Below are positions 20,024-45,325 of a DNA stretch of 64,000 nucleotides, in pieces. The notes beneath the pieces were generated by a model. It was not told where the DNA came from and searched no databases. It saw only the letters and a list, made by a program, of their open reading frames with translations. The stretch is taken from the NCBI GenBank assembly GCA_019058315.1, contig JAHPZH010000003.1:652451-716450 (forward strand). Reading direction: 5' to 3'. Position 1 is the first letter of the stretch. Every line of letters begins with the position of its first letter. The position numbers were made by a program, and so were the translations under genes. Source of the stretch: Candidatus Helarchaeota archaeon. Lineage in GTDB: Archaea; Asgardarchaeota; Lokiarchaeia; Helarchaeales; RDOG01.

Positions 20024-22768
20024 TTAACGTTTTTTCCGTAGTATTATGACCAATACTATAACGACTATAGCAGCTACAGCAGCAAGACCAATTATTAATG
20101 GCAAATTAACAAGAGATTCTCCTGTGGGAATAATTATATAGATGGGGGTAGTTCGAGCGGGAGATGGTTTTGGATAAAGACCAGTATTACGTTCATCATG
20201 GCGAAACTTAGGCCATGGAAACATTGAATCAATATATGGTCCTTTACAATTAAATGCCCATACAAAACCTCCGATTGACCCCGAAATAATTGCATGTGAC
20301 CCAATAACAACTTCTACTAATCCATCGCCATCAAGATCTGCAAGTGCAGGACTAGAATAAATTGTGCAATTTGTGTATATAGGCCAGCCTGTAACATTCG
20401 TTCCATCGTGATTTAAAGCCCAAATAAAGTTATCCATAGCACCAATTACTACTTCTAACATACCATCACCATCAATATCACCTATAGCTGGAGAGGAAGC
20501 ATAAACATCACTTACATTTGCTGGCCATCCAGGTAAATTTTGTCCCGTGTAATTAAGAGCACAAACATTATAGTCATCTGTACCCACTACTATATCTAAA
20601 TACCCATCATTATCTATGTCACCAAGAGCTGGGGATGAAATCCCAAATCCTCCAGATCCTATACTTACTGGCCATCCATTTATGTAGTCCCCAGTATAAT
20701 CAAAGACGTGAAGATTATTATTACCCCACTTAACAATAATTTCTAATTTACCATCCTTATTAATGTCTCCAAGTGCAGGAGTAGAATGTGTAGCACCTCC
20801 TATGAAAAAAGGCCACCCAGTCATATTATTTCCAGTTGAATCAAGCACCCATATATTTCCATCATCTGAACAGATCACGATTTCCAATTTTCCATCACCA
20901 TTGATATCACCAAGAGCTGGAGAAGACCACACATCACCTCCTGTTAACACTGGCCAACCTGTCATATTTTTCCCAGTTGAATTAAATACATAAATGTGAT
21001 TATCATTTGAGCCAACAACAACATCTAATTTTCCATCACCGTCTATATCGCCAAGAGCTGGTGAAGATCGTATATCACCTCCAGTTGAAACTGGCCATCC
21101 GGGTAAATTGTATCCAGTTGCATTTACTGCATAAACTTGTCCACCACCAGTTCCAACTACGATATCCAATATACCATCACCATTAAGATCACCAATAGCT
21201 GGGGAAGAACGGACAGCATCTCCTGTGTTTATAGGCCAAAGTCCAGCAACATCAGTCCCATCTTGATTTAAAGCCATTATCAAACGACCATTTGTGCCTA
21301 TTACCACTTCTAACTTATTATCATTATCTATGTCAACTAGAGCAGGAGAAGAAAAAACATCAAATTTTAATGGAGGAATTTGCACTGGCCATCCAGGTGG
21401 TGAAAGAAAATAAAGACCTGCATTTTGTTCATCATTATGGAACTTAGGCCATGGAAGTCCTTGCAGAGAACTATTACAATTTATTGCCCAAATATAATTA
21501 TCATCAGACCCAAAGACAACTTCAAAAAATCCATCACCATCTATATCACCGAGAGCTGGAGATGAGCCTATATAATCTCCTGTTTCTACTTCCCAATCCG
21601 AAATATTATTACCAGAAGAATCTAGAGCCCAGAGATAATTGTCATCTGATCCTACAACTATATCTGTTAGATTATCGCCATCGATATCGCCTAGAGCAGG
21701 AGAAGATCTCACAGTACTTCCCGTCATTACAGGCCAACCAGTGACATTTGATCCATCAGGATTTATAGCCCATATTTGCTTATCCATTGAACCAATTACA
21801 ACTTCTAACCGTCCATCATAATCAATATCCCCAAGAGCGGGAGAAGAATATATTAAACTTCCAGTTTTTACAGGCCATCCTGTCATATTGTGTCCAGTTG
21901 CATTAACAGCCCAAATGTGAAAATCAGTTGAGCCAACTATAACGTCTAACTTGCCATCGCCATCGATATCACCAATAGCTGGGGAAGATCTTACGTCAGC
22001 CCCCGTTTTTACAGGCCATAAACCTGTTAAATTATGTCCTGTTGAATTTAACGCCCAAATATAATCATCATCAGAGCCAACTACTATATCTAGTGACCCA
22101 TCCCCGTCAATATCGCCAATAGCAGGAGTAGACCCTACAAGACCATTGGTTTTTATGGGCCATCCTGTTACATTTGTTCCATCGTGATTGAATGCCCAAA
22201 TATACTCATCATATGATCCTACGACTATTTCTAATCTTCCATCATTATCAATATCACCCAAGGCAGGTGATGAGATTATATCATCTCCAGTAGTTACAGG
22301 CCATCCTGGAACATATGTTCCATCATCATTTAATACATGTATTTTATCATCATTTGATCCAATTACAATTTCAAGCTTTCCATCATTATCAATGTCACCA
22401 AGAGCTGGAGAGGAACTTATTGGTTCTCCTGTCTTTACTGGCCATCCCGTTACGTTATATCCAGTTGAATTTAATACATAAATATAGGTATCTTGAGATC
22501 CAAATATAGTCTCTAATTGCCCATCTCCATCAATATCTCCAAGAACTGGAGAAGAATATACTATACCTCCTGTTTGTACAGGCCATAAACCAGATACATT
22601 TGATGGATCTTTTTTAACAAGATCTACTGTATCTTGTTTTATCGTTTCAATTTGTGTTAGCGTATTGATTGGTCCCTTAAGCAGCGTTAGTAAAATTGGT
22701 AGTATTATTATTATAGTCAATAGAAATATTCTTGTTAAAGTCATTTTTCTTTGCATATTTTGAACCAT
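20024..22768 (-). CDS. cell-surface FG-GAP/VCBS-repeat protein, two 8-repeat propellers, C-terminal TM anchor
   Basis: N-terminal signal; 16 copies of GWPV.TG...SSPALGDIDGDG.LEIVVGS.D; C-terminal TM plus RKKR. Confidence 0.9.
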   Translation of the reverse strand: MVQNMQRKMTLTRIFLLTIIIILPILLTLLKGPINTLTQIETIKQDTVDLVKKDPSNVSGLWPVQTGGIVYSSPVLGDIDGDGQLETIFGSQDTYIYVLNSTGYNVTGWPVKTGEPISSSPALGDIDNDGKLEIVIGSNDDKIHVLNDDGTYVPGWPVTTGDDIISSPALGDIDNDGRLEIVVGSYDEYIWAFNHDGTNVTGWPIKTNGLVGSTPAIGDIDGDGSLDIVVGSDDDYIWALNSTGHNLTGLWPVKTGADVRSSPAIGDIDGDGKLDVIVGSTDFHIWAVNATGHNMTGWPVKTGSLIYSSPALGDIDYDGRLEVVIGSMDKQIWAINPDGSNVTGWPVMTGSTVRSSPALGDIDGDNLTDIVVGSDDNYLWALDSSGNNISDWEVETGDYIGSSPALGDIDGDGFFEVVFGSDDNYIWAINCNSSLQGLPWPKFHNDEQNAGLYFLSPPGWPVQIPPLKFDVFSSPALVDIDNDNKLEVVIGTNGRLIMALNQDGTDVAGLWPINTGDAVRSSPAIGDLNGDGILDIVVGTGGGQVYAVNATGYNLPGWPVSTGGDIRSSPALGDIDGDGKLDVVVGSNDNHIYVFNSTGKNMTGWPVLTGGDVWSSPALGDINGDGKLEIVICSDDGNIWVLDSTGNNMTGWPFFIGGATHSTPALGDINKDGKLEIIVKWGNNNLHVFDYTGDYINGWPVSIGSGGFGISSPALGDIDNDGYLDIVVGTDDYNVCALNYTGQNLPGWPANVSDVYASSPAIGDIDGDGMLEVVIGAMDNFIWALNHDGTNVTGWPIYTNCTIYSSPALADLDGDGLVEVVIGSHAIISGSIGGFVWAFNCKGPYIDSMFPWPKFRHDERNTGLYPKPSPARTTPIYIIIPTGESLVNLPLIIGLAAVAAIVVIVLVIILRKKR

Positions 22769-22899
22769 CCAAATTCATAAATTCTTAATTTTTATTATTT
22801 ATCAACTAAAATCAATTGATAATAAATCATGAAAAAAAAATTTAATAACCTTATTTTAATTGTATTTTAAAAAATAAATTAACAAATTACGGTGAAATC

Positions 22900-23337
22900 A
22901 TGAGTGGCGAATTCAATCCTCGCATTGTAGCATTCCTCTGCAATTGGTGCGGATATGCGGGGGCTGATCTGGCAGGAGTAAGCCGATTTCAATATCCTCC
23001 CACAATCCGTATTATTCGAGTAATGTGTTCGGGCAGAATCCAACCTTCATTTGTTCTCGAAGCATTTGAAAAAGGAGCAGACGGAGTATTAGTCTGCGGG
23101 TGACACATTGGAGATTGCCATTATATTCATGGAAATGAATATGCAAAGGAAAGAATAGAGATGACAAAAAGTCTGCTGGAAACTGTTGGAATTAATCCAA
23201 AGAGATTGCGTCTTGAATGGATTTCTGCAGCTGAAGGACAGAAGTTTGCATCTTTAATACATGAATTTACAAATGATATTAAACAATTAGGACCATTTGC
23301 AACTAAAAGTAAAAAGGTTGAAATACCAAATAAATAG
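22900..23337 (+). CDS. mvhD: hydrogenase iron-sulfur subunit MvhD/VhuD, selenoprotein (UGA at 23101-23103)
   Basis: [22 protein letters not shown]; in-frame TGA at the conserved Cys of GCHxGDCHY; frame continues (HIGDCHY...[12 protein letters not shown]) to TAG at 23335-23337; 145 aa. Confidence 0.93.
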
Positions 23338-23341
23338 TATA

Positions 23342-23409
23342 TTAAAGTTGGATGATTCACATCTGAAAAATTAATAGATGTGATGAGATGGCCGCAAGCC
23401 AAACTTTAA
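23342..23409 (+). promoter_or_regulatory. SECIS element in mvhD 3'-UTR
   Basis: Outer stem TTAAAGTT/AACTTTAA; ATGAT...TGAG non-Watson-Crick core; stem TCACATCT/AGATGTGA; A-rich loop; extra hairpin TGGC-CGCAA-GCCA. Confidence 0.8.
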
Positions 23410-23530
23410 ATCTGGTATGAAAATTCTACTTCTTTTTTCCTCTATCCCATTAGTTAAAGAATTAAAATTTATTAACAAATTTACTTTTTCTAAAATAAAG
23501 AATCTTTACAAATTCTAATAGTTGATTTAA

Positions 23531-44057: not shown

Positions 44058-44157
44058 TGGGGTTGCTGAGATTTGAACTCAGGATCACCTGCGCCCCAGG
44101 CAGGTATCATACCAATCTAGGGTTGAATTTTATTCAAACTAGCTAGACCACAACCCC
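44058..44157 (-). tRNA. tRNA-Pro(GGG) with 26-nt intron in the D-loop (44115-44140)
   Basis: Acceptor GGGGTTG/CAACCCC+A; anticodon arm CCTGC-CTGGGGC-GCAGG; T-arm CTGAG-TTCAAAT-CTCAG; removing the insert restores a normal D-loop AGCTTGGTA; CCA not encoded. Confidence 0.92.
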
Positions 44158-44190
44158 ACAATAGAGTGGGACCTTATGTTTTATTAATTC

Positions 44191-44277
44191 ATTAAGTTGG
44201 CGGCGATGTCTTGCAGACACATGCTCCATTCAGCTCCAATAACGGTTTCGCATCCTTTCATAGCTTTGCCGCTTAAT
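44191..44277 (-). promoter_or_regulatory. putative SECIS element in selD 3'-UTR
   Basis: GC-rich structured island: outer stem ATTAAG-CGGC/GCCG..CTTAAT, ATGA, ATGC-GAAA-CCGTT...AATGG-A-GCAT, hairpin GTGTC-TGCAA-GACAT. Confidence 0.65.
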
Positions 44278-44278
44278 T

Positions 44279-45325
44279 TTAAGTTTTTTGATACTCTATA
44301 ATTTCAATGTTTTCGTTAATATTAACCTTTCCAGTTCCACGTATTACTTTCCCAATGACATAAGGCTTAACTCCATTTTTCTTCAGAAGATTTATTAAAT
44401 TCTCTAGGTTATCTTTGCTTACAGAAATCAACATCCCACCAGCAGTTTCCGCTGCTTTACCTTCTAATAAAGGATATCCAAAGGTTTCTGCCATTTCTTT
44501 TGTCCCTTTAATAATTGGTAATTTTTCGATTATTATATCAACATTACTTTGCTTTGCCATCTCTTCAGCATGCCCTTTTATTCCAAACCCTGTGACATCA
44601 GTTGCTGCATTGACTGAAATTTCTTGCATGACCTTTGCAACGGGTTTATTTGAAGTTATCATTATATTAACAGCGATATCAATTGCTTTTTCCATTTTTT
44701 CTTGAGAAATCAATTCAAAAATTTCTTTCATAGGTTCGGGTTCTTTTATTAATCTATATGCAGCCATCGCCGGTTGAATTCCTAATGGTTTAGTTAATAA
44801 AAGAAAATCTCCGTCTTTAGCACCATTTAAATAAATAAGTTTATCTAGATCCGCGACAGCGATAGCACAACCACCAAGTAGAGGCCAAGGATTTTGAATT
44901 GATTGTCCTCCAACAATAAGACATCCTTCTTTCACACAAAATTCATGAAATCCTTTTAGCATTTCAGTTGCAATTATTTCAGGCATTTCTGGAGGATAAG
45001 CAATAAGCGAAACCATACTTAATGGATCCGGCCAGCCCATGGTATATATATCATTTAATACATTACATGCACAAATTTTACCTTGAATAACTGGATCGTC
45101 AATGATAGGGGTGAAAACATCAATTGTTTGAATGATTGCTAATTTTTCATTAATTTTTATAACTGCGGAATCGTCACCAATTCCTGCTAGAAGTCGTTCA
45201 TCTTTCACCATTGTTAAACCAGAATTTTTGAGTAATTTGGAAAGGTCATATTGAGGAATTTTACATGATCATCCATGAACTTGAACTGCTTTTGTTAAAC
45301 GGAATTCCTCAGTTACTGAATTCAC
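44279..45325 (-). CDS. selD: selenophosphate synthetase, selenoprotein (UGA at 45269-45271)
   Basis: Frame extends 5' of the listed ORF: FRLTKAVQVHG-U-SCKIP (GUxCK active site); GDDSAV, DVFTPIIDDP, TKPLG, TDVTGFG, ETAGGML; start codon uncertain (GTG at 45325). Confidence 0.95.

Follow-up and report, generated by a model that had tools for sequence, protein, structure and literature searches.

Sequence comparison points to a conserved third arm on the eukaryote-like SECIS element of an Asgard archaeal mvhD gene

The 64,000-nucleotide stretch of Helarchaeota DNA analysed here (the window) carries, directly behind a UGA-containing mvhD gene, a 68-nt element at 23342–23409 that is very probably the SECIS of that gene, of the eukaryote-like Asgard type I kind, folded as a three-way junction; a recruiting and contact mechanism through which it would act is proposed below. 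As judged from sequence comparison, the side hairpin that turns the element into a three-way junction is a conserved and co-varying third arm, with about 130 Asgard signals sampled. The core on which this arm sits is of a kind already known, the lokiSECIS, and the arm itself is a new, apparently undescribed feature of it.

All parts of the element lie on the + strand. The 5′ strand of the outer stem P1, UUAAAGUU (23342–23349), pairs in both the MFE and the centroid fold with the 3′ strand AACUUUAA (23402–23409), with a duplex energy of −5.6 kcal/mol. It is followed by G23350 (k-turn position −1b) and G23351 (L1), as mapped from a gap-free alignment, and then by the AUGA core (23352–23355), in which A, U, G, and A take positions L2, L3, 1b, and 2b of the k-turn, respectively. 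Helix II is formed from the 5′ strand UUCACAUCU (23356–23364) and the 3′ strand AGAUGUGAU (23376–23384), assigned from fold and alignment, and consists of U23356 (3b), opposed to U23384 in a U·U pair, and eight Watson-Crick pairs. It is capped by the 11-nt apical loop GAAAAAUUAAU (23365–23375), which has an A-rich start and is without the usual terminal G. The 3′ GA of the core (23385–23386; G = 2n, A = 1n), invariant in the 75 aligned elements, is followed by a GA linker (23387–23388; −1n and −2n), at the place taken in other elements by the 3′ strand of P2, and by the side hairpin P3, the third arm (23389–23401). P3 is a UGGC/GCCA stem with the loop CGCAA, identified from the fold and from stem covariation, and is directly abutted by the 3′ strand of P1; the conserved G-pyrimidine of its loop is G23394–C23395 in the window copy. 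The first-pass annotation had described the stems, the loops, and the TGGC-CGCAA-GCCA hairpin correctly, but had the outer stem directly enclose ATGAT, thereby omitting GG 23350–23351, and gave the linker before the hairpin as TGAG, where the sequence has GA.

RNAfold, which had been suggested as a check, returned the three-way junction as both the MFE and the centroid structure, with pairing of 23342–49 to 23402–09 (P1), 23357–64 to 23376–83 (helix II), and 23389–92 to 23398–401 (P3), and with the option of lengthening helix II by a G23365–U23375 pair. The apical loop starts with GAAAA (four of five bases A), or with AAAAA if that pair is formed, and ends on U23375, in a column occupied by G in at least 90% of the 75 aligned elements; the terminal loop G is missing from two further elements of the same genome too. 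The folding energy of −17 kcal/mol corresponds to z = −1.72, and 12 of 200 shuffled sequences are just as stable. The thermodynamics of the window copy alone are weak, and the case for more than chance rests on comparison.

The mvhD gene itself (22900–23337, +; 145 codons), delineated from the ORF list, the read-through translation, and Pfam, encodes a FlpD-family hydrogenase delta subunit. Its product is a full-profile match to Pfam PF02662 (FlpD; E = 3.9e-58), and the full-length read-through product aligns to FlpD 1–123. The in-frame UGA (23101–23103, +), read as selenocysteine (Sec) U68 in the motif VCG-U-HIGDCHY, is found 251 nt 5′ of the AUGA core and at the position of the conserved Cys of the CGUH motif of FlpD/MvhD. 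Past this codon the frame is open for 77 more codons up to the stop UAG (23335–23337, +), which sits 4 nt 5′ of P1. On the other side of the element, 24 nt 3′ of it, a T6 run is seen in the sequence (23433–23438, +) that is likely to be an archaeal transcription stop. Sec-mvhD is a stand-alone gene (22769–23337), with no hdrA upstream and with its upstream neighbour on the opposite strand, and of the two Sec sites published for VhuD, only the second is occupied by Sec in its product. The divergent 5′ neighbour (20024–22768, −) encodes a 914-residue protein with a C-terminal membrane anchor and ∼17 'SSPALGDIDGDGxLE' repeats, which by eye are FG-GAP/VCBS-like.

Metagenomic relatives of mvhD were collected at 80 loci, 74 of which were parsed and 6 of which were unparsable, and Cys occupies the TGA site in 74/74 of the parsed relatives, at identities of up to 77%. 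No Sec-containing ortholog of this mvhD was found in 60 related genomes and the 74 parsed metagenomic relatives; the 60 relatives hold one other close mvhD match with a TGA, which is cut by a contig end. The genome of the window has 13 other mvhD-like matches. In near-identical contigs from other samples there is no TGA change among the changes listed, at a depth that includes paralogs, and synonymous changes flank the TGA at 23100 and 23106. One contig from another sample spans 23311–23411 with a single difference, which lies outside the element. The window copy is read as functional because contigs from other samples keep both the TGA (among the changes listed) and the element.

The genome (5.8 Mb, ∼30% GC, 12 contigs) has a tRNA-Sec gene that adjoins SepSecS, as well as a Sec-containing selD that lies inside the window. 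The presence of these three components, together with the TGA at a conserved Cys, agrees with the earlier assignment of the element as the SECIS of a Sec-containing mvhD. SepSecS, tRNA-Sec, and a selD/AIR-synthase-like gene stand side by side at G000 C5:125775–128115. Only two L7Ae-family genes are present in this genome, and no SBP2-like protein was found in it. A core-only covariance model of 39 positions (R1), built from seven elements of this genome, detects nine elements in it at E < 0.01, the next matches (E > 0.5) being noise. The eight elements other than that of mvhD are located behind, or overlap, frames with an in-frame TGA, namely those of vhuU, an hdrA-like, a DsbA-like, and two IscA-like genes, and of the 'FSUC', membrane 'HVUPLC', and 'GCUU' proteins, and no R1 match was found beside 86 mvhD-relative loci. 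This link of presence and absence with UGA-containing genes bears out the earlier reading of the element as a SECIS and supports its putative role in directing Sec insertion.

Small UGA frames with a SECIS are located at G000 C2:355615–358660 (L046), C10:41820–45160 (L042), and C2:185700–189040 (L039), and the tandem 'GCUU', membrane 'HVUPLC', and 'FSUC' frames fit no archaeal selenoprotein family that the consulted literature names. Three genes of this genome (G000 C5:1207636, C3:41521, and C2:355615) terminate at the very UGA of their SECIS core, as do 13/13 selD genes in a different family of the phylum (L180–L192). The 5′ strand of P1 lies inside the coding sequence of genes that stop at the core UGA, so that termination there would require the ribosome to unfold the element. 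The Sec-selD of the window (VHG-U-SCK; 44279–45325, −) has a downstream element region at 44191–44277 (−). An outer stem, GCGGC/GCCGC plus UUAAG/CUUAA, is present in the 90 nt 3′ of the selD stop, as is a side hairpin, GUGUC-UGCAA-GACAU, whose loop falls into one family with that of the mvhD P3; P1 and P3 were thus assigned in this region, whereas its core and helix II were not assignable. A tRNA-like sequence with an apparent insertion is found 3′ of selD (∼44060–44165, −), with ends that are GGGGUUGUGGUCUAGC ... GGUUCAAAUCUCAGCAACCCCA-like, and may be an intron-containing archaeal tRNA; ARAGORN reported no tRNA over the whole window. Rfam gave nothing for the whole window at gathering score, and around the element, at E up to 10, it gave no SECIS family (RF00031 and its clan) and two chance matches. 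A non-match of lokiSECIS to the Rfam SECIS models is likewise reported in the main text of Mariotti et al. (PMC4989117).

The core of the element is that of the published lokiSECIS, which the main text of Mariotti et al. (2016; PMC4989117) describes as AUGA, a 9-bp stem, an 11-nt loop with an A-rich start, and GA, close behind the stop codon, and which is the Asgard type I eSECIS-like structure in the main text of Huang, Xiao and Zhang (2024; PMC11227280). The window element has the AUGA (23352–55) before a nine-layer stem and the GA (23385–86) after it, a position at which this kind of element may also have AA. This stem (23356–64/23376–84; eight Watson-Crick pairs plus the U·U) and the 11-nt loop, whose first five bases are mostly A, align without gaps with 74 other elements, and the element is located just 3′ of a UGA-containing gene of the same VhuD/MvhD/FrhD family. 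It differs in being without the 'ultraconserved' terminal G of the loop, in having GAG after the stem in place of the usual GAC, and in serving a stand-alone mvhD, whereas the published Loki vhuD genes follow hdrA. The first-pass annotation had pointed to the AUGA/GA core and the A-rich loop as eukaryote-like features published for Lokiarchaeota, in agreement with the main texts of both papers. The 'short helix II', which it had placed outside the canonical model, is no novelty, because the core is the published lokiSECIS, which is defined by the 9-bp stem and 11-nt loop.

The third arm is a different matter. The main texts of Mariotti et al. and Huang et al. (PMC4989117 and PMC11227280) model the core quartet, the upper stem, and the apical loop, with a generic internal loop and lower stem, and neither these nor the main text of a 2026 review describe a side hairpin or a three-way junction, although the supplementary figures may show the arm. 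Full-text literature searches for SECIS with 'three-way junction', or Asgard with 'hairpin', returned nothing relevant. The earlier suggestion that the side hairpin falls outside the published models is therefore in keeping with the main-text descriptions in PMC4989117 and PMC11227280.

Of 61 genomes searched with R1, 53 (the window genome and 52 relatives) yielded elements. Flanks were parsed for the 76 unique type I elements collected from them; the relatives share ancestry, so that element counts overstate independence. A hairpin with a stem of 4 bp or more that begins at most 4 nt after the 3′ GA was present in 72/76 type I elements as compared with 17% of shuffled flanks, and the mean hairpin score was 12.4 versus 7.2 for the shuffled flanks. 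In control windows such a hairpin was found in 18/76 at 28 nt further downstream and in 12/76 on the 5′ flank. The 76 elements have 52 distinct P3 stem sequences, and the GC content of these stems is 52%, compared with 25% for helix II. Their loops contain a G-pyrimidine in 76/76 elements (GC in 66/76), with the G invariant in a MAFFT alignment of 49 pentaloop arms, and belong to two families, UUGCN and YGCRA, the window loop CGCAA being of the latter.

Covariation of the P3 stem was scored in gap-free alignments of each loop family and gave 0.538 versus 0.193 and 0.491 versus 0.161 for shuffled sequences, with 0/500 shuffles reaching either score and with pairing that collapses when partners are slid; the P3 registers in these alignments were chosen by the parser in favour of pairing, a bias that the alignments carry, and the shuffle controls share the parser. 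RNAalifold was therefore also run on plain MAFFT alignments, where, unguided and with 28 type I elements (the window copy among them), it again produced helix II and P3. Groups of gap-free geometry were used, MAFFT on mixed elements having given an unusable alignment, and a second model (R2), built on one orthologous class, was dropped as too sequence-biased, as it missed the window element. The side hairpin, whose absence or lack of covariation in orthologous UTRs the first-pass annotation had named as grounds for giving it up, is thus present and co-varying; paralogous and heterologous SECIS elements were used in this comparison in place of orthologous UTRs, which were unusable because no Sec-containing ortholog of this mvhD was found. 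Chance as the source of P3 is ruled out by the shuffle, shifted-window, and slid-partner controls. No consistent Watson-Crick complementarity between the apical loop and the P3 loop was seen by eye.

The k-turn was mapped on a gap-free alignment of 75 elements (74 distinct rows), in which the UGA and the 3′ GA are invariant in all 75 and the base before the UGA is A, rarely G. Helix II is paired in 94.7% of cells and shows heavy covariation (74 elements). Position −1b, two bases ahead of AUGA, forms a pair with −1n, which follows directly on the 3′ GA, in 73/74 rows (GC 66, AU 4, UA 2, UG 1), and the −2 pair holds in 57/74, with five pair types. Since the −1 pair is kept with changes on both sides and the −2 pair in several types, the predicted core reads as a standard k-turn, with P2 as the C helix, N-A-U as the loop, tandem G·A/A·G pairs, and helix II as the NC helix. 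The sequence of the window copy, G23351-A-U followed by G-A and opposite G23385-A23386, fits such a three-base bulge with tandem G·A/A·G. The GA-C that results from a C at −1n (68/76 elements) has a counterpart in the euryarchaeal SECIS of Methanococcales/Methanopyrus vhuD and hdrA, which differs from the Asgard element in that a GAA_A bulge and a GC-rich upper stem are its defining features and that descriptions of it include neither an 11-nt A-rich apical loop nor a third arm.

P2 measures 1–4 bp in 72/76 elements, and P3 begins 0–2 nt after it. The P3 loop starts 6–8 nt after the GA in 70/76 elements, however the bases are split between P2 and P3, a fixed distance that fits a model in which P2 and P3 would form one stacked arm of set length. 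The outer stem P1 has a duplex energy of −5 kcal/mol or lower in 54% of elements versus 14% of cross-paired controls (p = 3e-11); it is not universal, being weak or absent in one large orthologous class.

Within this set the window copy is the sole exception at −1b·−1n, where G23350 faces G23387 and a Watson-Crick C helix is missing; it also has U·U at 3b·3n, the base of helix II, and no terminal loop G. As it departs from the rest of the set in these respects, it could be a less effective element or one with a different fold. With P2 reduced to G·G, the stems P1, helix II, and P3 come together at the k-turn with no C helix between them, through linkers of 4, 2, and 0 nt, and the predicted layout fits a formal k-junction topology, as a match at the level of secondary structure. 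Wang, Daldrop, Huang and Lilley (2014; PMC4005666) describe the k-junction of TPP riboswitches, which has the same formal linker pattern of 4, 2, and 0 nt and in which the C helix has the third helix stacked on it. The TPP riboswitch is, however, an unrelated RNA that serves in ligand sensing, and the fold of the Asgard element compared with it is a predicted secondary structure. Moreover, most Asgard elements differ from the k-junction in keeping a C helix of 2–4 bp between the kink and the junction, and are predicted to be a k-turn beside a three-way junction and not a strict k-junction.

Beyond the class, R1 gave only three weak matches in the rest of the phylum, which looked spurious on inspection. 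As R1 is too narrow, breadth was tested through selD. For 21 type II selD elements of the main Lokiarchaeial family, unguided RNAalifold gave a consensus of P1, helix II, a ministem, and P3, with compensatory changes in both P1 and P3. Three further families of the phylum have Sec-selD genes with the three-armed plan, which was found in 13/13, 2/2, and 2/2 of those parsed, and RNAalifold on the set of 13 returned a 7-bp P1, a 3-bp P2, helix II, and a 5-bp P3 with YGCRA loops. Five genomes of the same order as the window genome (G002–G006) have no R1 match, and Sec-selD is present in 4/5 of them; the regions downstream of selD in G004–G006 contain three-armed SECIS elements with 12-nt loops. 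Fixed-geometry, core-only models thus under-detect Asgard SECIS elements and miss whole families. A further locus (L058; G026:C134) has two SECIS elements on opposite strands within 1.4 kb.

In the mechanism proposed for mvhD, a ribosome would arrive at the UGA (23101–23103), and the folded element, 240–300 nt downstream, would recruit the Sec elongation factor together with Sec-tRNA. The k-turn would be bound by an L7Ae-type or another protein. P3 would stack on the short C helix, stabilising the kink. Its G-Y loop, kept at a constant spacing from the kink, would offer a further contact that depends on sequence, which would set SECIS k-turns apart from the many other k-turns of the cell. From these features we infer that P3 may serve as a docking or scaffold arm for an archaeal recognition factor. 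Candidates for such a factor are the Sec elongation factor and an Asgard-specific hypothetical protein that Huang et al. located adjacent to Sec genes. A more far-reaching version is offered tentatively. The k-turn and the G-Y loop, separated by 6–8 stacked layers, would make up a docking platform of two parts, to which an archaeal SECIS-binding factor or the Sec elongation factor would attach. The three-armed form would be ancestral to the Sec-using Asgard lineages and a precursor of the eukaryotic SECIS, in which the arm would have been lost, leaving the 'internal loop', once SBP2 took over.

The main rival to a role in recognition is that P3 is purely architectural, a GC-rich hairpin on a C helix of 0–4 bp that, closed by P1, holds the kink and is read by no factor. 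Such a clamp would suit a P2 of only 1–4 bp in 72/76 elements, a stem that is 52% GC as against 25% for helix II, a start 0–2 nt after P2, and the stacking of the third helix on the C helix in k-junctions (PMC4005666). A clamp, however, needs no fixed loop sequence, and yet a G-pyrimidine is found in 76/76 loops with the G invariant in 49 pentaloops, and the distance from loop to kink is tightly held. A purely architectural P3 is considered possible but somewhat doubtful; recognition is favoured by a loop dinucleotide that does not vary and by a spacing that is kept constant, and recognition and architecture may coexist. The position of P3 and P1 at the very end of the transcription unit, with the T6 run (23433–23438) next, raises the alternative that the two are a 3′-end element, such as a transcription stop, a processing site, or an mRNA stabiliser, merely placed beside a SECIS hairpin. 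The 3′ ends of archaeal mRNAs are often structured. P1, however, encloses P3 together with the SECIS core, and the position of P3 is fixed to the GA and not to the T-run, whether the stop codon lies upstream of the core or inside it. P3 is moreover found only with SECIS cores and not beside the Cys-form mvhD-relative loci, and a 3′-end element appears improbable.

The peculiarities of the window copy could alternatively mean that it is a decaying SECIS, that its TGA is a real stop, and that mvhD is truncated at residue 67. Its −1b·−1n mismatch is the only one among 74, the terminal loop G is missing, Cys is found in 74/74 parsed close relatives, and the 13 other mvhD-like matches of the genome are to be considered here as well. 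Set against this are the 77 further open codons that run to a UAG 4 nt before the element, within a full-length FlpD match, the lack of a TGA change among the changes listed in near-identical contigs (where depth includes paralogs), the one contig that keeps the whole element unchanged, and the intact state of core, P1, and P3, all of which make decay very improbable. A working SECIS with a third arm that may take part in recognition is the preferred reading of the window copy.

The eukaryotic SECIS (Rfam SECIS_1, RF00031; form 1 and form 2) resembles the Asgard element in its k-turn-like AUGA...GA quartet, its unpaired apical adenines, its location in the 3′-UTR, and its outer helix I. The two differ in helix II, which is shorter in the Asgard element, and in the region below the quartet, where the eukaryotic form is described with an internal loop and the Asgard element has P2 and the extra hairpin. 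They differ also in that SBP2 is without a homolog here, both in this genome and in the main text of PMC4989117.

How archaea recognise a SECIS matters in this context, as there is no SBP2 homolog and the Asgard SECIS is a proposed link to the eukaryotic signal; in published work, the archaeal Sec elongation factor showed no in vitro binding to the euryarchaeal SECIS. The third arm provides a handle on recognition in the form of a bait for pull-downs, mutants for reporter assays, and a better search model, and the window copy, being without a C helix, lends itself to asking whether function survives in a k-junction-like layout. A near-universal, co-varying, and sequence-marked third arm changes the working model of the link between the Asgard and the eukaryotic SECIS.
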